DNA of 64,000 nt, from the NCBI GenBank assembly GCA_038874595.1, contig JAVZCB010000001.1, forward strand, positions 64,001-128,000, in the 5' to 3' direction. A program made the translations under genes and the position numbers. The DNA comes from Candidatus Micrarchaeia archaeon (GTDB lineage: Archaea; Micrarchaeota; Micrarchaeia; CAILAH01). Positions 29,393-59,634 of this stretch are shown here, piece after piece (positions within the stretch are counted from its first letter, which is position 1; each line of letters opens with the position of its first letter). The notes under the pieces are model-generated. The model was not told the origin of the DNA. It ran no database searches and saw nothing but the letters and a program-made list of their open reading frames with translations.

Positions 29393-29556
29393 GGGCCCGT
29401 AGCTCAGCCTGGATAGAGCGGCAGCCTTCTAGTCCTTTTTCTTTCTTGCAGGCAAGAAAGAAAACCGGCACTAAAAGAAAGAAATGGAGGCGTGTCCAGT
29501 AATGCGCTTCAGGATAAGTAAGCTGAGGGTCGTGGGTTCAAATCCCATCGGGCCCG
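29393..29556 (+). tRNA. tRNA-Arg(UCU) with 89-nt intron at 37/38 (29432..29520)
   Basis: GGGCCCG/CGGGCCC acceptor, GCTC/GAGC D stem, CU-UCU-AA loop after splicing, GTGGG-TTCAAAT-CCCAT T arm; relaxed BHB. Confidence 0.93.
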
Positions 29557-35706: not shown

Positions 35707-35876
35707 TGGAAAACATCAGCACTTAAGCATAAAAATACTACTTCCTAATGTAAATTTGGCATTCTGTAGTATAAATCTAAGTTGTATTAATTTACGATTT
35801 TTTCATAAGAAAACATTACACTGATTTTTTGTGAGATGGAAAACATCAGCACTTAAGCATAAAAATACTACTTCCT
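35707..35876. repeat. 40-bp perfect direct repeat (35707..35746 and 35837..35876)
   Basis: tggaaaacatcagcacttaagcataaaaatactacttcct occurs twice, 130 bp apart. Confidence 0.9.
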
Positions 35877-36198: not shown

Positions 36199-37724
36199 GT
36201 GTGATGCTCCAGAGGTTTGCCGATGAGGGCTTCCTCGTGGAATCGGGTGTTGACCGCCTGCTTGCAGAATGCGGTCTCCAGGCAGATGCAATAATTGAGT
36301 TTGCAAAACAGCGTGATGAGTTTATAATCTCGCATTCCTTGATTGAGGATTATCTCAGGCAGAAGCATGAGCAGGAGAAAGCCTCTTTGCAAGAGCCTAT
36401 CGAACCTGAAACGCAGGCGTGCATTGAGAAAGTTGTTGAGGTGAAGGTTGAGCGCCCAGTTTTCCGTGCACTGGCATCAGAGTATCCATCACGTATTGAG
36501 CACATTGCCAGGTATGATGTGAGCGGCAAGTCCACTTGTGAGGGCACAGTTGATGATTTTGTATCGCTTTTCAAGGATAGGCACAAGAGGATATCTGCAC
36601 TCTTGCACGCACAGCCGTCACAGTATCCAGTGACCACATTAAACGGTGCAAAGAAGGGTGAGAAGTGCAGGTTTATTGGGATGGTGCGCTCAAAAACGGT
36701 AACAAAGAATGGGCACCTGATAATTGAGATTGAGGATGAGCAGGGTGTGATGAAAGGGTTCATAAACAGCTCAAAGAAGGAGCTGATGGCCCTCTCAGGG
36801 CAGGTGCTTTTGGATGAGGTGCTCGCATTTGACGGTAATTACAAAGACCCTTTCTTCTTTATTGATGCAATTACGTGGCCGGATATCCCGGTAAGCAAAC
36901 CAAAACGCCTGATTGAGGAGGACCTTTCAATAGCTTTCTTATCCGATTTGCACGTTGGCAGCAAACTTTTTCTGGAAGACCAGTTTAAGCATATGCTTAA
37001 CTGGCTGAAGGGCAACTGCGGGGATGCGCGTGAGCGCGAGATTGCTTCCTCTGTAAAATACCTGTTTATAGCAGGTGATATGGTTGACGGTATAGGGATA
37101 TACCCCAACCAGGAGAAGGAGCTTGCAATACAGGACATTTATGAGCAGTACAATACGTTGTTCAATTATCTTGAGCAGGTCCCGGAATACATTGACATCA
37201 TAATGATACCAGGTAATCACGATGCGGTCAGGAGAGGTGACCCGCAACCGCGTATCCCGGATGAGTTCATTAGGAACAAGCGCTCAAACTATCATTTTGG
37301 CTCATCACCATCCTGGTTTAAGGTTGAAGGGCTAAACTGCCTGCTTTATCACGGCAATTCGCTTGATTCAATGATTGCAAACATAGCGGGGCTTTCATAC
37401 AACGAGCCAGAGAAGGCGCAGGTTGAATACTTGAAAAGGAGGCACTTGTCACCGATATATGGCTCTAACCACATAATCCCAGAGAAGGAGGATTATATGG
37501 TGATTGAGGACGTCCCGGATATTGTACATATGGGGCACGTGCATAAGAACGGTTATGTTGAGTACCGCAACGTGCTGTGTATTAACGCAGGCACGTGGCA
37601 GTCGCGTACCGAGTACCAGCGTATGCAGGGGCACATACCTACACCTGCAATTCTTCCGATATATAATATGAAACGCGGCTCGATTCGCCAGGTTGATTTC
37701 AATGGTGGTACCGTTGAGTGCTGA
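36195..37724 (+). CDS. polB: DNA polymerase D small subunit DP1
   Basis: SDLHVGS, GDMVDGIGIYP.Q, PGNHD, YHG, RRHLSP, GHVH. Confidence 0.95.
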   Translation: MSVMLQRFADEGFLVESGVDRLLAECGLQADAIIEFAKQRDEFIISHSLIEDYLRQKHEQEKASLQEPIEPETQACIEKVVEVKVERPVFRALASEYPSRIEHIARYDVSGKSTCEGTVDDFVSLFKDRHKRISALLHAQPSQYPVTTLNGAKKGEKCRFIGMVRSKTVTKNGHLIIEIEDEQGVMKGFINSSKKELMALSGQVLLDEVLAFDGNYKDPFFFIDAITWPDIPVSKPKRLIEEDLSIAFLSDLHVGSKLFLEDQFKHMLNWLKGNCGDAREREIASSVKYLFIAGDMVDGIGIYPNQEKELAIQDIYEQYNTLFNYLEQVPEYIDIIMIPGNHDAVRRGDPQPRIPDEFIRNKRSNYHFGSSPSWFKVEGLNCLLYHGNSLDSMIANIAGLSYNEPEKAQVEYLKRRHLSPIYGSNHIIPEKEDYMVIEDVPDIVHMGHVHKNGYVEYRNVLCINAGTWQSRTEYQRMQGHIPTPAILPIYNMKRGSIRQVDFNGGTVEC

Positions 37725-40700
37725 TAACTCAAGAACACACACAGATAACAACGCACAGCAGCAGGCAACAGCCATTATTCATAATGATATCAAGGCATAT
37801 TTCAAGCGTATCGAGGAGGGGGCACAGGAAGCGCTCAGGATTGCAAACGAGGCGCGCAGGAAAGGCTACGATTTCGTTGACCATGTTGAGATAACGCTTG
37901 CACCTGATGTTGCAGGCCGTGTTGAGGGTATTGTTGGGCCGAAAGGCATTTCTGAGGTTATCAGGGAGCTGGTCGCACAGAAGAAGACGCGCGATGAGGT
38001 TGCGTTTGAGATTGCGCGCCGTATCACCACCAATGAATTTGCGACCGGCCTCAACACTGAGCAGCGGCTCGGGCAGGCAGTACGTACCGGCCTTGCGGTG
38101 CTTACCGAAGGTGTGCTGGTAGCACCTACTGAAGGTATATCCGCAGTTAAGATTGAGAAGAACCCTGACGGCTCAAACTACTTAGCGATTTATTTCTCCG
38201 GCCCGATTAGGTCGGCAGGAGGTACCGCAGCAGCATTGGCTGTCCTGCTGGGTGATTACGTCCGCCGGTTTGCTGATATTGGCGATTTTATACCTACAGA
38301 AACAGAACTGCTCCGCTATGTTGAGGAAGTGAATTTATATGATGCAAGGTGTGCCAGGCTGCAGTACAAGCCGCCAGATGAGGATATAAAATGGGTATTC
38401 AAGAATTGCAAGGTATGCATTGCAGGTGAGCCTACACACGATATTGAGGTTAGCGTGTACAGGAACCTTGAGCGCATGAAGACCAATAGGGTACGCAGCG
38501 GTGTTGCGCTCGTGAGCTGTGAAGGGATTGCACAGAAAGCGCGTAAAGTCCTCAAATACGCAAAGAAGTACGGGCTTGACTGGGGCTGGCTTGAGAAGCT
38601 TGTCAAGGAGAAAAAGAAAGAGGATAAGGTTGAAATCAAGCCGAACGATACGTTCTTGGAAGGGCTTGTTGCAGGCAGGCCGGTCTTTTCGTACCCATCA
38701 GCAAAAGGCGGGTTTAGGCTAAGGTATGGGCGCACGCGGTTTACAGGTATTGCTGCAAAAGCGATACACCCTGCTACTATGGTGCTGCTTGATTATTTCC
38801 CTGCGTTGGGAACACAGCTTAAGATAGAACGCCCAGGTAAAGGCACGGTAATAACACCGTGCGATACAATAATGGGCCCAATCGTTAGGCTCAAGAATGG
38901 TGATGTTGTATATGTTTCATCCTCAGATGAGGCAAAACTGCTTTATGAAGATGTTGAAAAAATCCTATTTCTAGGCGACATGCTTATATCCTATAATGAT
39001 TTTTCAAAAGCGAACCACGTGCTTTTACCATCACCGTTCGTTGAGGAGATATGGGACATGCTCGCTGCAGAAAAGTCAGCAAGCCAGGGTGAGCAAATCG
39101 TACGGCCCAGGACGGCGCGTGAGGCGTTTGATTTATCACGGAAGACATCGCTCCCATTATACCCGGCATACCTATACTTTTGGAGTGATATCTCAAAAGA
39201 AGAGCTGTTGACACTTGTTAACGCAATCACATCTGCTGGCAAAGTTGAGCTTGATTGGTTTGATGTAAAATCGCTTACAATCAATGATATGAGCGCAAAG
39301 CCCGTGCTTGAATCGCTCGGTGTGCCTCACAAGCTTAGGGATGGCGCAATAATAGTTGAAGGTGATCATGCATATTCACTTCTTGCCACACTCGGTATGC
39401 TTGGAAGCAGTTCAAACGCTAAAATATCCAGGGAAGTTATCGATTCTGCTGTTTCAAACGCCAATACTGATGACGTGTGCTCCATACTCACAATAGCATC
39501 AGGTGTTGAGATACGCAGGAAATCCACATATTATATAGGGTCCAGGATGGGCCGGCCTGAGAAGGCAGATGACCGCTCAATGGCAGGTTCTGTCCACGGC
39601 CTGTTCCCGATAGGAACGCTCGGTGGCAAACTCCGTAGTGTCTCAACAGCGATAAAGAGCAATTATGCATCCTCACTTAATGTTGACCTTGTAGAGCTGC
39701 ACTGCCACAAATGCAACGCAGTATCTTTTTATCCTGTATGCATTTCATGCGGTGCGCGCATCGAGTATGATATCTCAGCAGTTAAGCATAGTGTCAGGCC
39801 GATTGATTTCAAGTCGCTTTACGAGCGTGCAGTAAAACGATGCGATTGTTCACCTGAAGGGTTCCGTCTCATCGTGGGGCTTACAAGCAGCACAAAGTTC
39901 CCTGAAGCGCTCGAGAAAGGGCTTCTCCGTGCAAAACACGGCGTTTACGTGTTCAAGGATGGCACGTGCAGGTTTGATTCAACTGACCTGCCGGCAACGC
40001 ATTTCAGGCCGCGTGAGATAGGTACCTCAATTGAAAAGCTGCGCGAGCTTGGCTATCTATATGATGCTTCCGGCGCCCCGCTCGAATCCGAGGACCAGGT
40101 TGTTGAGCTGTTACCGCAGGATATAATATTATCAGAGAACTCTGCTGACTTTTTTTTGCGGCTCTCTCATTTCATTGATGACCTGCTCATACACCTATAT
40201 GGCATGAAGCCTTTTTACAATGCAGACTCAAAGGAGGACCTTATAGGCCATTTGTTTATCACACTCTCACCGCATACATCTGCAGGTGTGGTAAGCCGCC
40301 TCATCGGTTTTATTAAGGGCCGTGTCGGCATATCACATCCATATGTGATTTGTGCGCGCAGGAGAAATGCGGATGGTGATGAGGATACCGCGATACTTTT
40401 GATGGATGCATTCCTTAATTTCTCAAAGCTATACCTTCCAGAGACACGCGGCTCAACCATGGATGCGCCTATCGTTCTTACAACGGTTGTTGACCCTGCC
40501 GAGGTTGATGATGAAGTGCATGCAATGGAGGTTGTCAAATCTTATGGGCTCGAATTTTACAAGGCCGCTGAAGAGTACAAGCCGCCAAGCGCAATCAAGC
40601 CAGAGCTTGTTGAGGACAGGCTCGGGAAAGAAAGCGCGTTTTACTCTCTGGGGTATACGCACGAAGTCACGGATATAAATGATTCTCCAGTCCGTTCCGA

Positions 40701-41115
40701 GTACGTGCTATTAAAATCAATGAAGGATAAGCTTGATAAGCAGTTCTCACTATACAGCAGGCTGCGCGCAGTTGATGCAGTCGATGCGGCCACGCGGTTG
40801 CTATCATCGCATTTCATCCCAGACATCTATGGGAACCTACGCTCATTTTCCAGGCAGACGTTCCGCTGTGGCGGCTGCAACAACATTTATAGGAGAGTAC
40901 CATTATGCGGTAAATGCGAGAAGTGCGGCGGCAAGCTTCTCCTAACAATCAACAAGGGTGGGATTGAGAAATACATCAAGCTCGCCAAGTATCTCATAAC
41001 CAAGTACGATCTTCCTGAGTATACGATGCAGCGGTTGGAGCGCGTAGAGAAGGAAATCTCATCGATATTTGAGGATGAAAAAAAGAAGCAGTCATCTTTG
41101 GCGCAGTTCTTGTGA
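37693..41115 (+). CDS. polC: DNA polymerase D large subunit DP2
   Basis: EG.LVAP.EGI, GPIRSAGGT, GGFRLRYGR, SRMGRPEK, DGDED catalytic motif, GNLRSF.RQ.FRC; exact start uncertain. Confidence 0.97.
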   Translation: MISMVVPLSADNSRTHTDNNAQQQATAIIHNDIKAYFKRIEEGAQEALRIANEARRKGYDFVDHVEITLAPDVAGRVEGIVGPKGISEVIRELVAQKKTRDEVAFEIARRITTNEFATGLNTEQRLGQAVRTGLAVLTEGVLVAPTEGISAVKIEKNPDGSNYLAIYFSGPIRSAGGTAAALAVLLGDYVRRFADIGDFIPTETELLRYVEEVNLYDARCARLQYKPPDEDIKWVFKNCKVCIAGEPTHDIEVSVYRNLERMKTNRVRSGVALVSCEGIAQKARKVLKYAKKYGLDWGWLEKLVKEKKKEDKVEIKPNDTFLEGLVAGRPVFSYPSAKGGFRLRYGRTRFTGIAAKAIHPATMVLLDYFPALGTQLKIERPGKGTVITPCDTIMGPIVRLKNGDVVYVSSSDEAKLLYEDVEKILFLGDMLISYNDFSKANHVLLPSPFVEEIWDMLAAEKSASQGEQIVRPRTAREAFDLSRKTSLPLYPAYLYFWSDISKEELLTLVNAITSAGKVELDWFDVKSLTINDMSAKPVLESLGVPHKLRDGAIIVEGDHAYSLLATLGMLGSSSNAKISREVIDSAVSNANTDDVCSILTIASGVEIRRKSTYYIGSRMGRPEKADDRSMAGSVHGLFPIGTLGGKLRSVSTAIKSNYASSLNVDLVELHCHKCNAVSFYPVCISCGARIEYDISAVKHSVRPIDFKSLYERAVKRCDCSPEGFRLIVGLTSSTKFPEALEKGLLRAKHGVYVFKDGTCRFDSTDLPATHFRPREIGTSIEKLRELGYLYDASGAPLESEDQVVELLPQDIILSENSADFFLRLSHFIDDLLIHLYGMKPFYNADSKEDLIGHLFITLSPHTSAGVVSRLIGFIKGRVGISHPYVICARRRNADGDEDTAILLMDAFLNFSKLYLPETRGSTMDAPIVLTTVVDPAEVDDEVHAMEVVKSYGLEFYKAAEEYKPPSAIKPELVEDRLGKESAFYSLGYTHEVTDINDSPVRSEYVLLKSMKDKLDKQFSLYSRLRAVDAVDAATRLLSSHFIPDIYGNLRSFSRQTFRCGGCNNIYRRVPLCGKCEKCGGKLLLTINKGGIEKYIKLAKYLITKYDLPEYTMQRLERVEKEISSIFEDEKKKQSSLAQFL

Positions 41116-41351
41116 ATGAAGATGAGACTATATTTATGTGGTTTTTATATCTGCTCTCAGAATAGTATTTTATCTATGTATATAGTACGCCTTTTCTAAT
41201 AAATAAGGTTGAGAAGGAGATACTTGTTTTCTTAATAACTGCTTTTTATAGTATTTTATTGCAACATTATTGTAACAGTTTATGAAAGTAGAAATTAATT
41301 AAGGCTGTAGATATTTGTATTTAATATATTTTCCAGTGATTTATTCTTGGT

Positions 41352-42338
41352 GTGATAATGGATTTTTTTGAAGGAGTTCTTGTTATTATAAGTGCATTAA
41401 TATTTGCTGCGTTTTCGGCAGCTGTTGGTTATTATTATGGGGTGCAAACAGAACGCAAACGTAAAGAATATGAGTCAAATTCAGCATTAATTCATATCAA
41501 TCAGCAGTTAGCTGAGATTAAGATTAAGTTTGAAGAGATTGAGAAAGCCCGTAAAGATCGTGAGAAATTAGTGTCTGATATGAATGCAGAACGCATTGAA
41601 TTTATGGATATCCTTAGAAAGGACGCAAGTAAAAAGGAAGAAGATAGACTTAAACAAGTTCAAGAAATTATAGATAATATGGGTAAAATAGAAAGAATTC
41701 TTGTTGGTACTTATTCAAGAGGTAAGTCGGGTGAAGAACTTTTGAAAGAATCACTAAAAGATTTCATAAAAATACGCCTGGTAGAATGTAATGTATCCGT
41801 TGGCAATAATCTTACTGTCGAATATGGCTGGAAACTTAATGATGGTAAGTATATCCCTATAGATTCCAAATATCCAGATATATTTGGTCAAATTAGGAAA
41901 TTAGATGAAACCAACGATGCGAACGCTCGTAAAAAACTTAAGGAAATGATTAAGCGAACTTTAGAAAGAAATATAGATGATATCACAAAATATCAGAATC
42001 AAACAAAAACTACAGATTACTGTATTCTTTCAGTTCCAGATTCAATAATTGAGCTTTTACCAGAAATATGTCATTATGGTTTATCAAAAAGAGTTTTTGT
42101 CGTAGGATACTCAAATACAGCTATAATTGCGTTCCTTATCGCACAACAGTATAATAAAAGTTTGGAAGAACGTGATGTAAAGGAATTAAGCCAGATTATC
42201 GAGAGTCTCTCTATGATATTGGATAAGATTTCTGAGAACGTTAGTACTATCGAACGTGGGATTAAAATGGTCAAAAATGCCAGTGAAGATATTCAAGCTG
42301 AGGTGGTAAAGGGCAAACAAAAGATTAAGTTGTATTAA
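41352..42338 (+). CDS. rmuC: RmuC-family protein (TM + coiled coil + PD-(D/E)xK nuclease fold)
   Basis: N-terminal TM, RGKSGEELL, IPIDSKYP, I.KY...TTDYCILSVP. Confidence 0.8.
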   Translation: MIMDFFEGVLVIISALIFAAFSAAVGYYYGVQTERKRKEYESNSALIHINQQLAEIKIKFEEIEKARKDREKLVSDMNAERIEFMDILRKDASKKEEDRLKQVQEIIDNMGKIERILVGTYSRGKSGEELLKESLKDFIKIRLVECNVSVGNNLTVEYGWKLNDGKYIPIDSKYPDIFGQIRKLDETNDANARKKLKEMIKRTLERNIDDITKYQNQTKTTDYCILSVPDSIIELLPEICHYGLSKRVFVVGYSNTAIIAFLIAQQYNKSLEERDVKELSQIIESLSMILDKISENVSTIERGIKMVKNASEDIQAEVVKGKQKIKLY

Positions 42339-42444
42339 TGTTTTGGTTATTGAAAACTCTATACTTAAACTGGCTATTTCGGAAACCGAAAACTTATTAT
42401 TTAGTTAATCTCTAAGTAAATTCATCTCTAAATGGGAGGATGAT

Positions 42445-42957
42445 TTGTTGGGTCCTGGTGTGAGGTTAAGTATACTTCAAAAGAAGTCCGGAGAATGGTT
42501 TGATATGGAATCACATAGTGAAATAAGAGGTAATATTGTTGCAGTAAACGTCAGCGATTCCTGTTCAGGTGATTGGACTTTAAACTTAAAAATTTCTGAA
42601 GATTTGAGAAAATGTGAAGTTGCGGCTGTAACTTCTTCAGGAACAACAATTCTTCATGACCAAGTCAAGCATAAAACGATGGTTTTGAAGGCGAAAGATG
42701 AGAATGAATTTTATAGCCTATTGGGATTGGCATACATACAAGAAGATCGCCTTAGGATGAAAAGAGTGAGTTCTAGGACTAAAGTTCCGGTAGAAATATC
42801 TAATCGATTTGAGCTTGTGACAATGAGTAGCCTGGGCAAATTCGGACCAATGCGCGACAAGATTGCAGCAATAGTAAATAAAGAAGATTATGAGAGAATC
42901 GCATTGTTATTTTATTTACAGAAAATTGCCCCAATTTTGGACAAATTTAAAATTTAG
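42445..42957 (+). CDS. Hypothetical protein
   Basis: 170-aa ORF, TTG start after SD gggagg. Confidence 0.55.
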   Translation: MLGPGVRLSILQKKSGEWFDMESHSEIRGNIVAVNVSDSCSGDWTLNLKISEDLRKCEVAAVTSSGTTILHDQVKHKTMVLKAKDENEFYSLLGLAYIQEDRLRMKRVSSRTKVPVEISNRFELVTMSSLGKFGPMRDKIAAIVNKEDYERIALLFYLQKIAPILDKFKI

Positions 42958-42970
42958 AGGAGGTGAAATA

Positions 42971-43045
42971 ATGGCACGAAGAGTATCTTTCACAAGAAGC
43001 AATGGGAGCAGAGTTTGCTTCTATTCCACACGTAAGAGGCCTTGA
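42971..43045 (+). CDS. Putative 24-aa basic microprotein
   Basis: MARRVSFTRSNGSRVCFYSTRKRP* after a strong SD ggaggtga; not in ORF track. Confidence 0.45.
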   Translation: MARRVSFTRSNGSRVCFYSTRKRP

Positions 43046-43090
43046 ACTGAGAAGAACGTCTTAATAATGGAACCTAGCAATTGTCACATA

Positions 43091-43840
43091 TTATTTCTTT
43101 TGGTTTTGGAAAAACATTTTATTAAGAAAAGGTGATAGTAAGACTGGATCAAAAACTCTTTTCATTATGACTCTTGAATCAAGTTTTGTTTTCTTAGATG
43201 CAATCTCCATTATTGAAAAAATTTTTAAAAGGGTATCCAACCCCTCTTTTTCACAAAGGCTTTTAGCTTTGTTTAAAATTACAATATGTTGTTCTTTTGG
43301 TAAGTCAAACCTTAGTAGGTCAAACATTGAAATCTTAAGTGTTTCAAAATCTTTATTATTGAATTTTTCTCTAAATTTGTAAACTTCGTCATCTTTTAAT
43401 TTATTTACATAAGTATAAATTTTGTTTGAAAGTTGATTTGATTCGATTTTTCTTATCTTCGATTTCTTTGATAAAATTATTTTAGGTATTTGATTGTTAA
43501 GTATAGCGTATTTTAATTGATTTTTTTCATTTGCATTAAGTTTTTTGGAGTTTGGTGCAAGATAAGATAGTACAGGCAGTAATTTTGAAATAGGTAGTCT
43601 AATTTTTGAAATATCCTCTTTTGTGAATGCACTTCTTAACCAATAACCTCTAAGAAGTAGCGCTCTACTCACATAAATTTTTTTATTTTGAATATTCCAA
43701 TACGTTTTTTGTGAAACCATTTTATGCTCAACTAAGAAATCCCCCAGTATCCATAATTTTTGTATTTTTTTATGAGGATCAATCTCTCTTTTGTATTCAC
43801 TAGTCATTTTTTGAAGGGTAATTAAGATATAATCATTCAT
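43091..43840 (-). CDS. Basic hypothetical protein, third gene of the GHKL operon
   Basis: Start MNDYIL overlaps the GHKL ATPase stop (ATGAATGA); Lys-rich, helical. Confidence 0.65.
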   Translation of the reverse strand: MNDYILITLQKMTSEYKREIDPHKKIQKLWILGDFLVEHKMVSQKTYWNIQNKKIYVSRALLLRGYWLRSAFTKEDISKIRLPISKLLPVLSYLAPNSKKLNANEKNQLKYAILNNQIPKIILSKKSKIRKIESNQLSNKIYTYVNKLKDDEVYKFREKFNNKDFETLKISMFDLLRFDLPKEQHIVILNKAKSLCEKEGLDTLLKIFSIMEIASKKTKLDSRVIMKRVFDPVLLSPFLNKMFFQNQKK

Positions 43841-45626
43841 CTTCTTCAACCTCTGCAACTTTCTTTTTAATTTCTTCACGTTTGTCCCAGAGCATTTTCT
43901 CAACTTTTGCAATTGTTTCAACTATCTTAACGTTTTTGTCCTTGCTATCTACTTCAATACCTTTCCTCTTGTAATATAGGTCAAGAAACCACGGTGTGGT
44001 AACGAATGCCAAATATGAGATAAATCTTTTTGTTATTTTCTTTTTCTTAGGAGTATTTAATCTCTCTAAATAAAAAGGATGTATTGAATTAATAACAATT
44101 ATTTTATCTCCCCACATATCTGAAGGAGGCATTTTTTCACCAAGTGGGTGAAAATCAAATTGTAAGCCTCGTTGCTTTATTTGTTTGTAATTTATTTTGT
44201 TACCATCATCAGATGAAGGTACTTCCCCCTTACTTTCTCCGATATTTGATCCTATCTGACCAGAGGTAGCATTTTCATTTATTTCACGTGATAAACCAGT
44301 TCTTATTTTACCTGTGCCTTTGTAGTCTTTGTTACCGAGTATAAAACCAGCACCTATGTCAGCGATTCCACTAAGCAAACCTTTGTCTGATTTTATTTCA
44401 CGTGTCCTTGCAAAGATATCGGTATCCATCTCCTTCGAAACATCACTAAAAATATCTGATAGAAGATCCGACAATGATTTTTCGTGTTCTTTTATTTTAT
44501 TTTTGTCAATCTCATCAAATTTTTGTTTTACAACAGCAGTGATTTTTGCAAGTTCTGAATAGATGTAATCACGTTCATCGGAGGGAGTAATATCTGACCT
44601 TGTAATGTCTATTTCAATTTTTTTCGTAATATCAAACCGTCCAATAATTTCTGGTCTTTCCCATACTGTATTGTCAATGTTATTCTCGTTACAATAATCC
44701 TTAAAACTCTCAAGTCTTGGTATCTCCCTTATGGTTGTACCTAATCTGCTGATACGTGGTAAGTATTCTTTAATCACGGGATTTTGATTAAGATATGTCG
44801 GTTCAATAATTTTGAAATAATACGTGGCAATACTTTTGTTGTTTTTGTCTTTAATTTCACCAGAAATGACCTCCCCAGGTATAGTGTTATAATCCAAAGG
44901 AGATATTTTGATTATTTGTGGTTTGCATACACTGCGCTTTTTGGTCCATCTATAAATATATATCTCAACAAGATTGCTACGTATAAACTCTTCGAAATGA
45001 ATTGGGATTGTGGTAATTAATTTTTCAGAGATGTAATCAAAAGAACTCCTTCTCTGTTCCTTTTTTGTAATTCCCTCAACAAATACATCTGTCCCATGAG
45101 TTCTTGTTATCCTATAATATTGGAATGCTCGTAAATCGAAAATGGAACCGAATACAGGCATCTGAACTTTCTCTTTTTCTTCATTTAGGTTCCCATAAAT
45201 TTCATTTCTTTCAAAGGATAGTAAATTTGTCTTTGGAGATTCATCTATACTTGTTGAATAAATTTTGATTGTGTCAAACCACCCTCTGAAAGATTGAATA
45301 CCATATCCAAATTGACCAGGTGTCCAAGCGTAAGCTTTTTTCTTTGAATTGAAAGTTTTTGTAGGTAATTCGCTAAGTTCTTTTCTGGTCATCCCAGCAC
45401 AATTATCTTGTATGATAAATCTCTTCCTTGTGGTATCAATATGAACAAGAATTTTTCTTGGCAATATTTCTTTACCGTATTTTTTTTCCAGCTCAATCGC
45501 ACTATCAATGGAGTTCTGTATATATTCATAAAGAACTGCTTCAGGTTGGTGGTACAGTGCAGCGATTCTTTGAATGATCTCCATTATTTGTTCATCTTTT
45601 GGATTATCTAGAATTCTTAACTTCAT
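43833..45626 (-). CDS. GHKL (MORC/Hsp90-like) ATPase
   Basis: EYIQNSID, DNCAGM, GQFGYG, HGT (GHKL motifs I-IV), S5-like region, C-terminal IVINSIHPFY; alternative start 45656. Confidence 0.85.
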   Translation of the reverse strand: MKLRILDNPKDEQIMEIIQRIAALYHQPEAVLYEYIQNSIDSAIELEKKYGKEILPRKILVHIDTTRKRFIIQDNCAGMTRKELSELPTKTFNSKKKAYAWTPGQFGYGIQSFRGWFDTIKIYSTSIDESPKTNLLSFERNEIYGNLNEEKEKVQMPVFGSIFDLRAFQYYRITRTHGTDVFVEGITKKEQRRSSFDYISEKLITTIPIHFEEFIRSNLVEIYIYRWTKKRSVCKPQIIKISPLDYNTIPGEVISGEIKDKNNKSIATYYFKIIEPTYLNQNPVIKEYLPRISRLGTTIREIPRLESFKDYCNENNIDNTVWERPEIIGRFDITKKIEIDITRSDITPSDERDYIYSELAKITAVVKQKFDEIDKNKIKEHEKSLSDLLSDIFSDVSKEMDTDIFARTREIKSDKGLLSGIADIGAGFILGNKDYKGTGKIRTGLSREINENATSGQIGSNIGESKGEVPSSDDGNKINYKQIKQRGLQFDFHPLGEKMPPSDMWGDKIIVINSIHPFYLERLNTPKKKKITKRFISYLAFVTTPWFLDLYYKRKGIEVDSKDKNVKIVETIAKVEKMLWDKREEIKKKVAEVEEDE

Positions 45627-45636
45627 ATTTTCGGCC

Positions 45637-45870
45637 TCATAAATTAAATTGTTCAAGTGTGGATTTTTTGAAAAGTGATTTTACACGTTTTGTTTCCTTT
45701 TCAATTGCAGTAAATATTACATTCACTTCTTCATCAGAATACTCATAAGTAGAGATATTTGAACAATTTTCTAATAATTTGAGAGTATATAAAGTTTTCC
45801 TAGTTCTAGCCTCAGTGATACGTCTGAATTTCTCATTTTTTGTCTCTCCCGCAACAGATATTTTTACCAT
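45637..45870 (-). CDS. Small helical protein of a family I recall next to R-M/defence loci
   Basis: ETKNEKFRRITEART..TL..L.LL.NCSN...YEYS.EEV..IF..IE.E pattern; first gene of the GHKL operon. Confidence 0.65.
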   Translation of the reverse strand: MVKISVAGETKNEKFRRITEARTRKTLYTLKLLENCSNISTYEYSDEEVNVIFTAIEKETKRVKSLFKKSTLEQFNL

Positions 45871-46194
45871 ATAATCATCTAATACTATTAGTATTGATAA
45901 AAGCAAATATAAAAACTTTTTCATTTTATGTTGTATATATTGCGGCTCTTAAATATCCAAGCGTTCCGTTGTATGAGGCATCTAAATTTTCATACCCGCT
46001 CTTAAGTTATGATTGGAGGTGGTCAAGGTGATGCAAAAATACATATCTATCTTAAATTTTAGGCTCAGATGATTATCTTTAATCTCTGGACATTCTATTG
46101 TAAGTAATAATTTCAATGATAAGATATCTCCGACTATTGAAAAAGAGTGATCTTTACTCAGCTTCATTAAGTTATTTTTATTCTTTATTTATAC

Positions 46195-46278
46195 CTACTA
46201 CTGGAAGAACCACTGCTTTACTGCTTCTGTTGTGATGCAATAGAAAAACAAAATTTCGAATACGATGGCGATGCCAAG
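46195..46278 (-). repeat. Diverged copy of the P-type ATPase 3' end
   Basis: 46201..46278 aligns ungapped to 48757..48834 (63/78 identical by hand count); reads LGIAIVFEILFFYCITTEAVKQWFFQ** versus LDIAIVFGIVFLYCITTEIVKQWFFQ. Confidence 0.85.
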
Positions 46279-46318
46279 ACATATTTTGGTGTATCTTTTC
46301 CCTTACGGCAAATGTAAG

Positions 46319-46522
46319 AAATGCGAGAAGTGCGGCGGCAAGCTTCTCTTAACAATCAACAAGGGCGGGATTGAGAAATACATCAAGCTGGCCAAATACC
46401 TGATTACAAAATATGGACTTCCAGAATATACGATGCAAAGGTTAGAGAGAGTTGAGAAGGAAATCTCATCGATATTTGAGGATGAAAAAAAGAAGCAGTC
46501 CTCACTGGCACAGTTCCTCTAA
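46319..46522 (+). repeat. Duplicated 3' end of DP2 (last 67 codons + stop)
   Basis: Aligns ungapped to 40912..41115; 177/204 nt identical by hand count, one amino-acid change (D->G). Confidence 0.95.
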
Positions 46523-46567
46523 TACTATTTTAAGCTTAGAGTACCTAATTATAGATGAGCTGATTTT

Positions 46568-47134
46568 ATGGGAAAAAGGAGTGGAAAGAAGGGTAATGAA
46601 TACTCTGATGCCGTATTCGTGGGTGTCGGAGGCTGCGGGATCAATACGGTCTCAAGGCTGTCAGAGCTGGGAATAACCGGCTCAAAGTTCGTACTTGTGA
46701 ATAAGAAGGGCGATAACCATCCCTCATCAGTGAAGGGCGCGTCCGAATTGATCGTTGACATGCCGTTATCAACGCGCATGCCGCTCCCAGACAAGGAACT
46801 TGGCGCTTTCAAGAGCCAGCTCTCCGAGGAGCTCAAAGGCGCCGGGAAGGCATACATATTCGCAGGGCTTGGCGGCTCAACAGGTACCTCCCTTGCGCCG
46901 ATTGCCGCGCAAACAGCCAGGGAAATGGGCGTGGAGCCGGTCATAATAGTCACTCTTCCGTTTGAGGTTGAGAGGAATAGGTGTGAGATTGCCAGGAATA
47001 CGCTCCCCGCGCTCAGGGATATCCCCGGCCAGCTAATAGTCCGCGACAACAACGATTTGGTGAAGGAGTGTCCTAACCTATCGATGAAAGAGGCATTCAA
47101 GAAATTCGATGAGAAGCTCATAGGACAGCTCTGA
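46568..47134 (+). CDS. FtsZ/tubulin-like GTPase, N-terminal domain only
   Basis: VGVGGCGIN, AGLGGSTGT, VTLPFEVE, DNNDL, AF...DE; ends after 188 aa. Confidence 0.8.
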   Translation: MGKRSGKKGNEYSDAVFVGVGGCGINTVSRLSELGITGSKFVLVNKKGDNHPSSVKGASELIVDMPLSTRMPLPDKELGAFKSQLSEELKGAGKAYIFAGLGGSTGTSLAPIAAQTAREMGVEPVIIVTLPFEVERNRCEIARNTLPALRDIPGQLIVRDNNDLVKECPNLSMKEAFKKFDEKLIGQL

Positions 47135-47281
47135 TTAATTTCCTTTTATTTTAGGGTTTCTATGATATTTGTTTATGCAGTTATGTGTGGCACAAAAGAC
47201 AGACAATTAAGTAATCTTAAAATCCAAGGTAAGGCGTTTTGTAATATTTTATATATTTATATCTTCACTAATGATAGGATC

Positions 47282-47893
47282 ATGGATAAAAAAACTGTCT
47301 TTGAAATTGTTAAAAAATTACAATTTGACACTAAAAAAATTATTTACAAAAAAGGTAATACCTCTGTATATATTATAAGACCATCTAAATTATCTAAGCG
47401 ATTTAATGAGTATGATGTGCATAAGAATTTCCAGATATTCCTTAGGATTGGTGAACGTGAATTTAGGCCAAATCATCTTAGGGTGATGATTGATCTTAAC
47501 CTAAGGATTCGCAGCCGCCCTGAACTGAAGAAAAAGCTACTCCTAGCGTTTGACAATATATTCTATGGAGCAGATCCAGAAAAGGAACTGAAAGCTCTGT
47601 CCCGACAGAAGTTTGAGCATTTTCTAAATGATTTGATAGTTATTGGTACACTTGCCCAATTATTTGTGATTGAGCAGGAATATTGTTATCACAGAAAAAG
47701 TAATTTTGATCCACCAACTCTCTTTTTTCAGGGCTGGGTTAGGGAATTTCTAGATAATCCTAAGGAAATAGATAATTTGTGCATGAGCGTTTGTAAAGGC
47801 CTACCTCCATTACAAAAATATGTATCTCGTGAAAATAAGAAAAGCAAAAACTATTCAAAGAAACTTAAGCCCCTTTGGTATCTTAAATCTTAA
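47282..47893 (+). CDS. Putative type II restriction endonuclease
   Basis: Basic AT-rich ORF convergent with, and overlapping by 4 nt, a DNA methyltransferase; no catalytic motif recognised. Confidence 0.5.
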   Translation: MDKKTVFEIVKKLQFDTKKIIYKKGNTSVYIIRPSKLSKRFNEYDVHKNFQIFLRIGEREFRPNHLRVMIDLNLRIRSRPELKKKLLLAFDNIFYGADPEKELKALSRQKFEHFLNDLIVIGTLAQLFVIEQEYCYHRKSNFDPPTLFFQGWVREFLDNPKEIDNLCMSVCKGLPPLQKYVSRENKKSKNYSKKLKPLWYLKS

Positions 47894-48663
47894 TTCTCGG
47901 ACCATGCTTCAACAAGTTGCTTCTGAACTGCACCTAGGCGTTTTTTGGCAATTTCAATGTATTTTTCTTCTTTGTCTATACCTATTGAATTCCTATTAAG
48001 CATCTTTGCCGCTACCGATGTTGTTCCTGAGCCAACAAATGGATCTAGGACAGTATCACCTTCATTTGAAGTTGCAAGTATGATCCTCTTCAATAACTCT
48101 AGGGGTTTTTGGGTTGGATGAATACCATATTTTTTTTCACTCTTTGGTGTTAAAGGTATTTCCCACACATTACGCATTTGCTTGCCTTTATTTATAGATT
48201 TCATCAGTTCATAATTAAATACCCATTTCTTGTTGCTATGATTCTTTGTTGCCCAGATAAGATGTTCTGTGGATTCAGTAAACATGCGACACGTTATGTT
48301 TGGCTGGGCATTTGGCTTGAACCATACGATTGAATTGTTAATCTTTGCCTCATATATATGCTGAAGGATAAAACCAATCTGATAAATGTTATGGAACGAG
48401 CCACATACCCAAAAGCTCCCACCATGCTTCAAAACTCTCATACATTCCTTTATCCACTTCTGATTGAACTTAAAGAATTCGTCTTTCTCAAATATGTCCC
48501 ATTCTTCTGTAAGCGTTATGTGTTTGCTATATGCCCATCCCAGACCCTTCTTTTTCGCTAATCCATAAGGCGGGTCAGCAAATATCAGGTCAACTGATTC
48601 ATCAGGCATTTTCTTTAGCTCCTCAATTGCATCACCAATAATCAGCTGGTGAGTGGTCTTCAT
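47890..48663 (-). CDS. Site-specific DNA methyltransferase, beta class (N6-A/N4-C)
   Basis: ADPPY, HPTQKP, VLDPFVGSGTT in beta motif order. Confidence 0.93.
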   Translation of the reverse strand: MKTTHQLIIGDAIEELKKMPDESVDLIFADPPYGLAKKKGLGWAYSKHITLTEEWDIFEKDEFFKFNQKWIKECMRVLKHGGSFWVCGSFHNIYQIGFILQHIYEAKINNSIVWFKPNAQPNITCRMFTESTEHLIWATKNHSNKKWVFNYELMKSINKGKQMRNVWEIPLTPKSEKKYGIHPTQKPLELLKRIILATSNEGDTVLDPFVGSGTTSVAAKMLNRNSIGIDKEEKYIEIAKKRLGAVQKQLVEAWSEN

Positions 48664-48726
48664 AAATTCATTTCACGTAGATTGTTTAAAAACATTATTA
48701 CAGAGATATTCCAGTTATTTTAAATA

Positions 48727-51324
48727 CTAATAGCTATTCTCAAACTCCTTATAATGCTGGAAGAACCACTGCTTTACTATTTCTGTTGTGATGCAGTACA
48801 GGAACACGATCCCGAACACGATTGCAATATCAAGCGCGGATGGAACTGCAAAATTGAAATATTGGCCCACCGCGGGAAGTGAGACCACCGCAACCGCAGC
48901 GGCTGTGATAAACAGCGAAGATGTGATTAGCAGCCTGCTTGGTATGCTTGCAAAGAACGGCCCGCGCGTTCTCACTATGAATGTTATGAATATCTCGGAT
49001 AGCAGCGATTCAAGGAACCAGAGCGTTCGCAGCAGTGCCGCCCCTACGCCTAACACGTAATAGAATACTAATATGGTGAGCAGGTCAAACAGTGAGCTTA
49101 ACACACCGAAGAATACCATGAAATGCGAGATCATCTTGACATTCCATTTCTTAGGTGTCTTGATAGATTTCTCATCCACGTTATCTGTTGATATTGCGAG
49201 CATTGGGAAATCGCTGAGGAAGTTGTTCAATAATATCTGTACCGGAAGAAGCGGTATAAATGGAAGAAACAGCGGTGATATAATTACAGTGCCCATATTA
49301 CCGTAATTTGCGCTTATTGTGTTGAGTATATATTTTGTAATATTAGCGAACGTTTTCCTGCCCTCACGCACACCATCTGCGATTACCCTGAGGCTCTTAT
49401 GTGTCAGGACAACATCCGCTGCCTCTTTTGCAACGTCCTGTGCGGTATTTACTGAAATCCCCACATCAGCAAGCCGGAGAGCTGGTGCATCATTAATACC
49501 ATCACCCATAAACCCGACGATGTGGCCGTTTGCACGGACAGCTTCAAGGATTCTTACTTTTTGTGCAGGTGTAACACGCGCAAACACATTGTATTTCTCA
49601 ACAACCTCGTGTAATTTTTTATCATCTATATTATCAATCTCCTTGCCGGTGATTACGCGTTTTCCCTTAATCTCGAGCTTTACATCCTTACATAATCTCT
49701 TTGTAACATCCGGGTCATCACCGGTTAAAAGCATCAGTGATATGTCCAATTCCTTAAACTGCTTGATTGATTCAATAGCAGTTCTCTTAGGCTCGCTCTT
49801 AAAGAGCATAAACCCTTCCAACGTTAGCTCGCGCTCATCTGCAACAGAGTAATCATTCTTTTGTGGGACGGCTCGTGAAGCCACTGCGAGTACAGAGTAT
49901 CCTTCCTTTGCAAACCCCCGCACAATCTCATTTATCTTTTTCCTAACACTATCAATCTCAGTTTTCTTGCCGTTGATGTTGGCATAAGCACATACAGAGA
50001 GCACAGATTCTGCCTCACCTTTTGTTATAAGCACAATCTCCTGTCGTGATTTTCGCTTGCTTGTTTTCTGTGATATTTTAAACACTTCGCTCATCCGTTT
50101 CCTTTCATAATCGAACGCAATATCATCAATGTTTGCATACCCATCCGGCTTTTGGATATGATGAAGGTTCGCATATCTGATTATTGCAGTATCATATACA
50201 TTTCCAGAAATGTGTTTGCCGTGCGTATGCGCATGACTGCACAGCAACCCATATTTCAGGACACCCCAATCATCATTACCTAACGGTGCAACAGTTTTCT
50301 CAAGCATAAGTTCCGGCTCGGTAAGCGTACCGGTCTTATCCATTAGCAGCACGTCCATGAGCCCAACATCTTCGATTGTGGCGAGCTTTTTAACCACGAC
50401 TTTCTTCTCAGCCATCTTAAGTGCACCTGCAGACAACGTGATGGTAGTGATTGCAGGAAGCATCTCAGGTGCAATGCCAACAGCCACTGCAAGTGCAAAC
50501 AATAAAGATTCAAGGATACCCCTGCCAAGATATGAGTTTACAGCAAACACAAATATTGTCATTATTACAATGACCTGGAGTGTGAACGTACTGAACTTCC
50601 TGATATTAACCTGGAAATCAGATTCAGGTATCTTTGCTGAGTATAGTGTAGCGGTCCTGCCAAAATGCGTAGATTGACCCGTGGCAACCACTATACCTTT
50701 TGCAGTACCGTAAGTTACAGTGGTCCCCATAAGTGCATAATTCTTAAGCTCATATGCTGCCGGCCGTGCAAGCTTAATAGGCGCCGTACTTTTCTCAACC
50801 TCGCGCGACTCACCAGTTATTGCAGATTCATTCGTACGGAAATCTTCACATCTGACCAAACGCATATCCGCAGGCACAACGTTCCCGATCTCAAGCAGGA
50901 CCACATCACCGGGTACAAGGTCCTCCGCATTGATTTCTTCCTGCCGTCCATCACGTATTACAACAGCCTTATTTGAAAGATACCTCTTGAGCTGGCGTAG
51001 CGAGTTTTCTGAACGGTACTCTTGATAGAACCCGAGCAGTGCACTTAACAGCAGTATCGCTATAATCGTGAGCCCCTCTGTTGTATCCCCAATGTATAAA
51101 GCTATGACTGAGGCAAAAATTAGTATGAATATGAAAGCGTTATTAAACTGCGAAAGCAGTATCTCAAGCCATGAACGCCTGTCCCTCTCTGGGATTGAGT
51201 TCCTTCCGTAAACCATTCTCCTGCGTGCAACTTCATGTGCGCTTAGCCCTTTCTCAGGATCAACCTTAAGTGCAGCTGCAACTTGATAGCTTTCCAATCG
51301 CCAATATTCACTATTGTTATTCAC
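48727..51324 (-). CDS. mgtA: Mg2+-transporting P-type ATPase (P3B, MgtA-like)
   Basis: TGES, PEMLP, DKTGTLT, TGD, MGDGINDAPAL, SANYGNM, NNFLSD; GTG start inferred. Confidence 0.88.
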   Translation of the reverse strand: MNNNSEYWRLESYQVAAALKVDPEKGLSAHEVARRRMVYGRNSIPERDRRSWLEILLSQFNNAFIFILIFASVIALYIGDTTEGLTIIAILLLSALLGFYQEYRSENSLRQLKRYLSNKAVVIRDGRQEEINAEDLVPGDVVLLEIGNVVPADMRLVRCEDFRTNESAITGESREVEKSTAPIKLARPAAYELKNYALMGTTVTYGTAKGIVVATGQSTHFGRTATLYSAKIPESDFQVNIRKFSTFTLQVIVIMTIFVFAVNSYLGRGILESLLFALAVAVGIAPEMLPAITTITLSAGALKMAEKKVVVKKLATIEDVGLMDVLLMDKTGTLTEPELMLEKTVAPLGNDDWGVLKYGLLCSHAHTHGKHISGNVYDTAIIRYANLHHIQKPDGYANIDDIAFDYERKRMSEVFKISQKTSKRKSRQEIVLITKGEAESVLSVCAYANINGKKTEIDSVRKKINEIVRGFAKEGYSVLAVASRAVPQKNDYSVADERELTLEGFMLFKSEPKRTAIESIKQFKELDISLMLLTGDDPDVTKRLCKDVKLEIKGKRVITGKEIDNIDDKKLHEVVEKYNVFARVTPAQKVRILEAVRANGHIVGFMGDGINDAPALRLADVGISVNTAQDVAKEAADVVLTHKSLRVIADGVREGRKTFANITKYILNTISANYGNMGTVIISPLFLPFIPLLPVQILLNNFLSDFPMLAISTDNVDEKSIKTPKKWNVKMISHFMVFFGVLSSLFDLLTILVFYYVLGVGAALLRTLWFLESLLSEIFITFIVRTRGPFFASIPSRLLITSSLFITAAAVAVVSLPAVGQYFNFAVPSALDIAIVFGIVFLYCITTEIVKQWFFQHYKEFENSY

Positions 51325-52481: not shown

Positions 52482-52535
52482 CCTCAGAGAAGCGTACATA
52501 TTATGCTTTTATATGTTGGCTGCCTACTATAAAAT

Positions 52536-52590
52536 GGCGATGAAGCTCGCCGGCACAAAAGCGAACCGCCAAAGTTGGCTGATAGCTTCT
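52536..52590 (+). promoter_or_regulatory. Fluoride (crcB) riboswitch aptamer
   Basis: GGCGATG-AAGCT-CGCC...AACCGCC-aaagtt-GGCTGAT-AGCTTCT: P1 GGCG/CGCC, P2 GCC/GGC, pseudoknot GAAGCT/AGCTTC; TATA-like ttttatat about 25 nt upstream. Confidence 0.85.
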
Positions 52591-52612
52591 GGTTTTACAC
52601 GAAGGTGGTTTT

Positions 52613-59245: not shown

Positions 59246-59634
59246 TCATTTGCCCATGAGCTTTCTCGCATTTTTGTTAAACATTTTCCCGGTTTTTCTT
59301 ACCATTTCCAGCAATCCGCTATCGCTCGCTCTTTCTCTGCTCTCATACAGCTTGTTCTTTTCCGCATGGACGTATATCATTGTTGTCTGCAGGGTGGTAT
59401 GGCGTGCAAATTGGGAGCCAGTATGACATTCCAGTCATTTCTGCGGCAGAAGTTGGTAATGGCGTAATGCCTTAGGGAATGCGGCGAAAGCCGGTACAGC
59501 GGCTTTGGTTTTCTATCTGCGCCATAGCCGTAAACCTCATTCAGCTTCGCTTTCTTGATATATCCGTGGAAAGGAGAGCTTGCTGTTTCGCTTGTGATAT
59601 GCGGCTCGGTATCATAACTGAAAACGCAAAGCAA
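59246..59634 (-). pseudogene. Tyrosine recombinase/integrase C-terminal remnant
   Basis: LSPHSLRHYAIT, then after a frameshift FARHTTLQTTMIYVH (H-x-x-R, H, Y catalytic residues); 5' part missing. Confidence 0.8.

Follow-up and report, generated by a model that had tools for sequence, protein, structure and literature searches.

A cargo-bearing unit with orphan ends of two convergent genes behind the polymerase D large-subunit gene of a micrarchaeal genome

Introduction

Insertion with long target duplication, reported by Nobusato et al. (2000) as cited by Furuta, Abe and Kobayashi (2010; PMC2853133), is a mode of gene gain whose mechanism the later paper gives as unsolved and for which its survey retained no archaeal case. 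Here we describe a locus that works like such an insertion, although it is not a strict member of the class, in a 64,000-nt stretch of DNA (hereafter the window) that spans positions 64,001 to 128,000 of contig JAVZCB010000001.1 in the assembly GCA_038874595.1 of a Candidatus Micrarchaeia archaeon. In it, a 5,407-nt unit stands at the end of the gene for DP2, the large subunit of the replicative polymerase PolD. The unit lies between two copies of the DP2 gene end and carries, at its far side, a piece of the Mg2+-transporting P-type ATPase gene that faces DP2 across the same interval. A literature search for polD as an insertion target found no paper.

As in the described insertions, the cargo is shorter than 20 kb and has no mobility gene, the duplication exceeds 30 bp (198 nt at 88% identity) and takes the form of long imperfect direct repeats, the repeats are unequally identical to the target, and a strain without the insert has a single repeat copy. 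The unit departs from them in that it holds no homologues of R and M genes, the methyltransferase pair of the locus being resident and present in the empty allele, in that its second repeat copy is a diverged mosaic allele, and in that a piece of the opposite flanking gene lies within the insert. Three of the four traits that Furuta et al. (2010) used to define these insertions are found here, the exception being a restriction-modification (R-M) pair inside.

Other described arrangements resemble the locus in part. One is e14, a prophage with its own integrase. Where e14 sits in icd, an intact essential gene stands at one end and a mostly silently differing C-terminal fragment, icdC, at the other, and recombination between the two ends excises the insert, the gene end that results being chimeric (PMC13626634). 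The micrarchaeal unit differs in having no recombinase or phage gene inside and, should the empty allele be the ancestral one, in having a working gene that has retained the resident sequence. Arrays of type VI secretion system (T6SS), Rhs and contact-dependent inhibition (CDI) genes, attributed to homology-facilitated illegitimate recombination with C-terminal displacement (PMC5361080), likewise stack new cargo before older cargo behind a conserved gene, leaving orphan gene ends and involving no integrase. Here, however, the anchor is a replicative polymerase rather than a toxin, there are two layers only, and the reciprocal switch at the far edge of the repeat is more easily reconciled with a crossover within the repeat than with a one-sided anchor. 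Allelic replacement between conserved flanks (hsd-type substitution; PMC2853133) also yields different gene sets with mosaic flanking ends, whereas at this locus both alleles are kept in tandem.

What is new is the two-ended unit, its mosaic alleles and the mapped switch; on present evidence it is not a new mobile-element family. For a class of insertion described since 2000 without a mechanism, the case is unusually readable because an empty allele is available, the switch has been mapped to 6 nt, the second repeat is a different allele, and a gene piece from the opposite flank is carried. It suggests, in a testable form, that inserts of this kind can arise when an allelic exchange between strains is left half-finished.

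Structure of the locus and its empty allele

The window lies on contig C1 of a metagenome assembly (918 kb in 7 contigs, 93.5% complete), and the nearest relatives of its DP2 carry the names Candidatus Micrarchaeota or Micrarchaeia. The genes for DP2 and the Mg2+ ATPase converge over 7.6 kb, and both are intact. DP2 (37702..41115, plus strand, 1137 aa; NCBIfam polC above cut-off) is the last gene of a UPF0147-DP1-DP2 run. The ATPase gene lies at 48727..51297 on the minus strand (TIGR01524 above cut-off) and is called at 856 aa, its ORF (open reading frame) being open to 51408. The last 198 nt of DP2 (40912-41109) recur 5,407 nt downstream at 46319-46516 with 88% identity (blastn E 7e-66), 24 codons being changed, 23 of them silently, and 46201-46278 matches the ATPase gene at 48757-48834 with 81% identity (E 1e-12). 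The two orphan pieces are separated by 40 nt, and no further copy of either was found in the genome. The first-pass annotation of the window had laid out these pieces as two blocks, cargo A and cargo B, each bounded by a DP2 tail and an ATPase tail, and the order, strands and coordinates that it gave hold in blastn and family matches. Its observation that no integrase or transposase lies inside was likewise borne out, since integrase, recombinase and transposase families have no match in any ORF of 41116-48726. The ATPase fragment, which it had taken for the 3' end of the gene, is a real piece that falls short of the true end. The piece (46196..46278, minus strand) consists of 26 codons, numbers 859-884 of an 893-codon ORF, followed by TAG TAG, so that the final 9 codons are missing, and the DNA beyond it has no significant likeness to the real ATPase end (p 0.48). 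The 40-nt spacer (46279..46318) contains no 14-mer that occurs elsewhere in the genome; we rejected an origin by slippage from DP2, the likeness not being significant (shuffle p 0.10, random-window p 0.20).

An empty allele had been predicted from the window, and it exists in the conspecific assembly GCA_038891275.1, which contains the only mate of DP2 in its 90% cluster. One contig of that assembly follows the window to 41109 with 99.84% identity over 13.4 kb and past this position continues as the sequence 3' of the second DP2 end, into an ftsZ-like gene, while a second contig holds the methyltransferase pair and the ATPase gene at 99.94%. The window minus 41110-46516 equals this empty allele (L132) except for 3 single-nucleotide polymorphisms (SNPs). 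Copy 1 of the DP2 end (40912..41115, plus strand), which lies inside the working gene, is identical to the empty allele at 195 of 198 positions through 41109, and the last two codons differ thereafter. It is of conspecific type through 41103 and different from 41110, and copy 2 (46319..46522, plus strand), the mosaic orphan, is different through 46510 and of conspecific type from 46517. This reciprocal switch falls within the same 6 nt of both copies, the motif CAGTTC at 41104..41109 (from the last host-type to the first incoming-type base) and again at 46511..46516 (both plus strand), 3' of which the sequence is that of the empty allele. The inserted, or deletable, unit is therefore 41110..46516 (5,407 nt, 32% G+C), all of it absent from GCA_038891275.1; that cargo A is also absent elsewhere in that assembly is read from cluster membership. 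We regard the empty allele as real because a 6-nt switch is too short for an assembler jump, and because a collapse of the repeats would have switched in a 47-nt block identical in both copies and retained codons 61-64 of copy 2, neither of which is seen. Since an orthologue of the ftsZ-like gene also follows DP2 in another species (L136, DP2 79% identical), DP2 followed directly by this gene is the older order.

Mosaic ends of the unit

Relative to the conspecific allele, copy 2 has 21 codons changed and no residue changed, and the changes are strikingly uneven, with one in codons 1-23, sixteen in codons 24-45, none in codons 46-60 and four in codons 61-64 (site-weighted permutation p < 0.0001 for the cluster and 0.02 for the empty run). 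Relatives differ from the conspecific allele along the whole length of this region. Differences that are silent throughout argue that copy 2 descends from a gene in use rather than being a duplicate of the target, in agreement with the earlier proposal that the donor was a related strain, the second DP2 end having come from the functional gene of another lineage. Copy 2 thus appears to be an allele with blocks from another species rather than a fresh target copy. The ATPase piece has a similar makeup, in that 10 of its 13 distal codons differ from the host gene as against 1 of the 13 on the cargo side (Fisher p 0.001, with the boundary set post hoc), and it also has residues specific to the host. 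Host-identical and saturated blocks thus alternate in both orphan pieces. Both full-length genes match the conspecific strain, and the diverged blocks are confined to the pieces that travel with the cargo. Third-position G+C of the working DP2 end, at 0.66, lies within the range of the ends of relatives (0.60-0.72), that of the orphan being 0.56.

The first-pass annotation had imagined a mobile unit of DP2 tail, cargo and ATPase tail, and the ATPase piece is indeed at the far end, in the right orientation and pointing to the same interval. Because the unit holds the ends of both genes that flank the interval, cargo A probably came from that same interval in another strain, and these two gene ends are the best evidence for such an origin.

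Possible origins of the unit

The explanation we prefer, with about as much confidence as doubt, is that another strain's allele of the DP2-ATPase interval was added to the resident one, not swapped for it, by one homologous crossover in the DP2 end. The donor would have carried cargo A between DP2 and the ATPase gene, its flanking gene ends already mosaic from earlier imports out of another species. A piece that began 68 codons ahead of the DP2 stop and ended 26 codons inside the ATPase gene would then have been closed into a circle, or turned into a tandem piece, by a non-homologous join at the 40-nt spacer, where such a join is present. Host RadA may have paired both DP2 ends, probably from the 47-nt identical block, and the junction would have been resolved at the right edge of homology, within CAGTTC, giving the product that the two assemblies display. 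In this way the working DP2 would keep its resident sequence and gain only two new last codons, and the donor DP2 end would be orphaned ahead of the native ftsZ-like gene. The genome encodes RadA and Hjc, and searches with PF00589, PF00239 and tblastn found no intact tyrosine or serine recombinase in it. Additive entry may also have been favoured in that a clean swap would delete the resident methyltransferase pair, and type II systems resist replacement because cells losing them are killed (PMC3031569). The direction of the event, gain here rather than loss in the conspecific strain, is one that we infer. On this account a 0.9-Mb archaeon in which no intact recombinase was found would have gained defence-island genes at an essential gene without damaging it.

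Several points weigh against the additive crossover. DprA was not found in the genome, and neither a circle nor a donor chromosome with DP2, cargo A and a full convergent ATPase gene was found. For the crossover to fall in the last 6 nt and not in the 47-nt block, branch migration to the edge of the repeat is required. The last 1.4 kb of DP2 contains 8 of the 21 SNPs relative to the conspecific strain where 1.5 are expected (post hoc p 0.0002-0.005), a tract that exceeds what the 198-nt arm of a circle explains. Codon usage and outgroup relatives, the latter saturated, do not identify the native DP2 block or the polarity of the event; the empty allele may have arisen later, by a deletion like that of icd/icdC (PMC13626634), and the endonuclease role of the methyltransferase partner is putative.

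The SNP excess would suit the long anchor of the main rival explanation, which we consider somewhat unlikely, namely an anchored illegitimate recombination with C-terminal displacement followed by loss of cargo A in the conspecific strain. A linear donor piece would have undergone homologous recombination within DP2, at a point upstream of 40912, and its other end, in the ATPase gene, would have been attached by a non-homologous join to the resident DP2 at 204 nt from the stop, making copy 1 the donor end and copy 2 the displaced resident end; recombination between the copies would account for the loss. Such an event needs no circle and places the native ftsZ-like gene 3' of copy 2, as expected for a displaced end. 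It has been proposed for stacked Vibrio T6SS arrays (PMC5361080), and deletion between a gene and its orphan end has been seen for icd/icdC (PMC13626634). It does, however, require a second event for the conspecific allele, resolved once more in the last 6 nt, and the three host-identical blocks in the two orphan pieces demand separate conversions or, otherwise, a coincidental acquisition of foreign blocks in exactly the stretch that was to be orphaned. That the working end matches the cargo-less strain also speaks against it, unless that strain is the deletion product. A further possibility, distinctly unlikely in our view, is site-specific integration through a tyrosine recombinase that worked in trans or has meanwhile disappeared and whose crossover core was the 6-nt switch or, as for e14 in icd, the left repeat edge. 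The 192 nt of element-side homology and the piece of the opposite flanking gene would be superfluous for a recombinase, even though a 6-nt reciprocal switch is the size of a recombinase overlap. The cargo does have a counterpart of its GHKL module in another micrarchaeote's integrase island with 23-nt direct repeats (L148), but those repeats are short, identical and tRNA-end-like, as opposed to the 198-nt mosaic here. A frameshifted C-terminal tyrosine-recombinase remnant, 48% identical to the L148 integrase and missed by the PF00589 search, lies 10.5 kb away and outside the unit (59294-59604, minus strand); it lacks the N-terminal two thirds, no intact recombinase was found in the 93.5% complete genome, and the conspecific strain has the remnant as well (L133). 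No DP2 end was found in viral contigs, and orphan DP2 ends elsewhere vary in length (23-71 nt), although the mapping to 6 nt refers to one crossover, the orphan ends of other genomes having no empty alleles.

An assembly artefact, in which two strains, or an empty chromosome and a free circle, were merged via the shared 47-nt block, would be a natural concern with a metagenome assembly, and independent contigs built from short words do break at that block and lack 41110-42089 and 46050-46470; nor were the junction proteins found in independent contigs. We nevertheless judge it highly improbable. The independent contig L129, which comes from a sequencing run, carries codons 61-64 of copy 2 in continuity with the ftsZ-like gene, and L130 covers 3,960 nt of cargo A, each at 100% identity, so that independent support covers the outer right join and the body of cargo A, not the two inner joins. 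In addition, the switch relative to the conspecific allele spans 6 nt and is not at the long shared word, contamination is estimated at 0.05%, and a circle beside an empty chromosome would still confirm the unit. Least credible of all, in our view, is that the orphan was retained for a function, as a free DP2 C-terminal peptide competing for PCNA, primase or DP1. An 83-aa ORF (46271..46522, plus strand), called as a gene in the NCBI record, does start within the ATPase piece, cross the spacer and continue into the orphan DP2 end. Its frame is open from the ATG at 46271 through a retained C-terminal PIP-box-like motif, and the C-terminal PIP box of Pyrococcus DP2 binds PCNA and primase (PMC7101311). 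Yet its first 16 residues are encoded by spacer DNA and antisense ATPase sequence, and the lack of amino-acid changes in 66 codons means little where about 0.1 change is expected anyway at 0.15% strain divergence. The conspecific strain has no such ORF, the orphan ends of other genomes are decayed or too short, and a promoter scan 5' of the ORF, which covered bacterial promoters only, gave chance-level results.

The additive crossover could be extended to a broader proposal, which we regard as doubtful: entire alternative alleles of the interval behind polD would circulate between micrarchaeote strains as non-replicating, recombinase-free circles that enter and leave via the DP2 end by host recombination, which would make that end a reusable landing site for stacking and provide a general mechanism of insertion with long target duplication.

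The DP2 end in related genomes

The first-pass annotation had also called the locus a cassette-exchange hotspot and expected alternative cargo in relatives. DP2 and the ATPase gene are convergent in six relatives, 0.3-4.7 kb apart, and the interval does differ among them, containing nothing, endonuclease V, a HAD hydrolase, LemA or other genes. These relatives are, however, all other species, the contents are mostly of housekeeping type, and both orphan ends together occur in none of the six. A search of the 386 genomes of the class that have a DP2 match found a long copy of the DP2 end in the present one only. In a matched per-pair test, cargo followed by an orphan gene end occurs at 3 of 119 other DP2 loci and at 3 of 911 other gene ends of the same loci (Fisher p 0.023), an excess that is overstated because operon-internal and spurious ORFs are among the control ends and because the loci are related to one another. 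The three short orphan DP2 ends sit behind 0.75-1.2 kb of cargo, which twice consists of toxin-antitoxin-like pairs. On these counts insertion at the DP2 end is recurrent and tolerated, and the hotspot claim is only modestly supported.

The three loci lie at L103 10513-11340, L110 585-1770 and L079 496-1560, and their cargo comprises PIN or PIN-like plus RHH-type pairs and, in one, a 269-aa gene. Second DP2 matches in G205 (a contig overlap) and in G214 and G397 (second full-length genes) were rejected as instances of the same structure, as was G138, which has short tandem copies only. In G138 (L152 1726-2029), the DP2 stop region is present three times, and between its copies lie two hairpin-like inserts of about 55-60 nt that are related to each other. 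G214 (C21, C79) and G397 (C22, C23) each have two diverged full-length DP2 genes, reflecting either paralogy or binning contamination. In one relative's DP2-ATPase interval the ATPase 3' end recurs about 8 times with a 51-nt period (L049 6698-7271), and a short duplication across the stop codon is also found at the ATPase end of one relative. In G003, of the same family, DP2 reads through as a 1452-aa frame into a homologue of an OB-HD protein (L034 340-4698), through a real fusion or a sequence error; in the window the OB-HD protein lies beyond the ATPase gene, which the G003 locus lacks.

Genes of the unit and its surroundings

Cargo A comprises five ORFs: an RmuC-family protein (41358..42338, plus strand, 326 aa), a 170-aa ORF without a family match (42445..42957, plus strand), and a three-gene GHKL module on the minus strand. 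The module consists of a 95-aa ORF as its first gene (45637..45924), 53% identical to its L148 homologue, a GHKL (HATPase_c_3) ATPase of 597 aa (43833..45626) and a 249-aa basic protein as its third gene (43091..43840), which clustering places in a small family with 10 representatives. The counterpart of the module in the integrase-bearing L148 island is 44-53% identical overall, 49% for the GHKL ATPase, and its neighbours there are a DndB-like gene, an AAA ATPase, a methyltransferase and a NucS-like gene. A defence role of the module is suggested by association only, and the earlier description of a defence-type cassette survives to that extent only, PADLOC and PHROGs having returned no useful match for cargo A. 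Within the class RmuC homologues have a patchy distribution, with matches at E<=1e-20 in 5 of 400 other genomes. In G169, an RmuC homologue is immediately preceded by a CRISPR-like array with 19 repeats (L161 44-1383).

The stretch described as cargo B is only partly a cassette. Its first gene, a short ORF with an FtsZ-like GTPase domain (46568..47134, plus strand, 188 aa, 53% G+C), is a native DP2 neighbour, as its place behind DP2 in L136 indicates, and low-G+C cargo appears limited to the methyltransferase pair. The pair includes a type II adenine DNA methyltransferase (47890..48663, minus strand, 257 aa; N6_N4_Mtase, CcrM-like; PF01555 E 4e-60, PADLOC MTase_II E 6e-89), also encoded in conspecific assemblies, and a conserved partner of 203 aa (47282..47893, plus strand) whose homologues face adenine methyltransferases in two other genomes, a neighbourhood that makes it a putative restriction enzyme. 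The partner's family has 730 clusters, with about 70% identity among the best 120 and no Pfam family. Its structural model is confident; fold searches gave no clear match to a solved structure (best fold match Z 5.2, rmsd 5.9 over 121 residues), and a nuclease fold is still possible. We therefore treat it as a candidate for an undescribed restriction enzyme. The FtsZ-like orthologue in L136 (8424-8780) is shortened to 118 aa by an internal deletion, and the present genome holds three other FtsZ-like loci besides the 188-aa ORF, which has the GTPase domain only.

Further observations concern the flanks and the rest of the genome. At 41008-41010 the working DP2 encodes Asp, a position at which Gly is present in the conspecific strain, in the orphan copy and in the closest relatives. 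A fluoride riboswitch (52527-52598; Rfam, above the gathering score) precedes a GTPase-like ORF of 581-583 aa, not a fluoride channel. A 164-nt tRNA match at 29393-29556 probably contains an intron and was missed by ARAGORN, which, run without intron search, reported only 5 tRNAs across the whole genome. Short local duplications lie at 35707-35876 of the window and at six gene ends on C2, C3 and C5, several of them across stop codons; by the same test in this genome they occur at 6 of 858 gene ends and at 0 gene starts.

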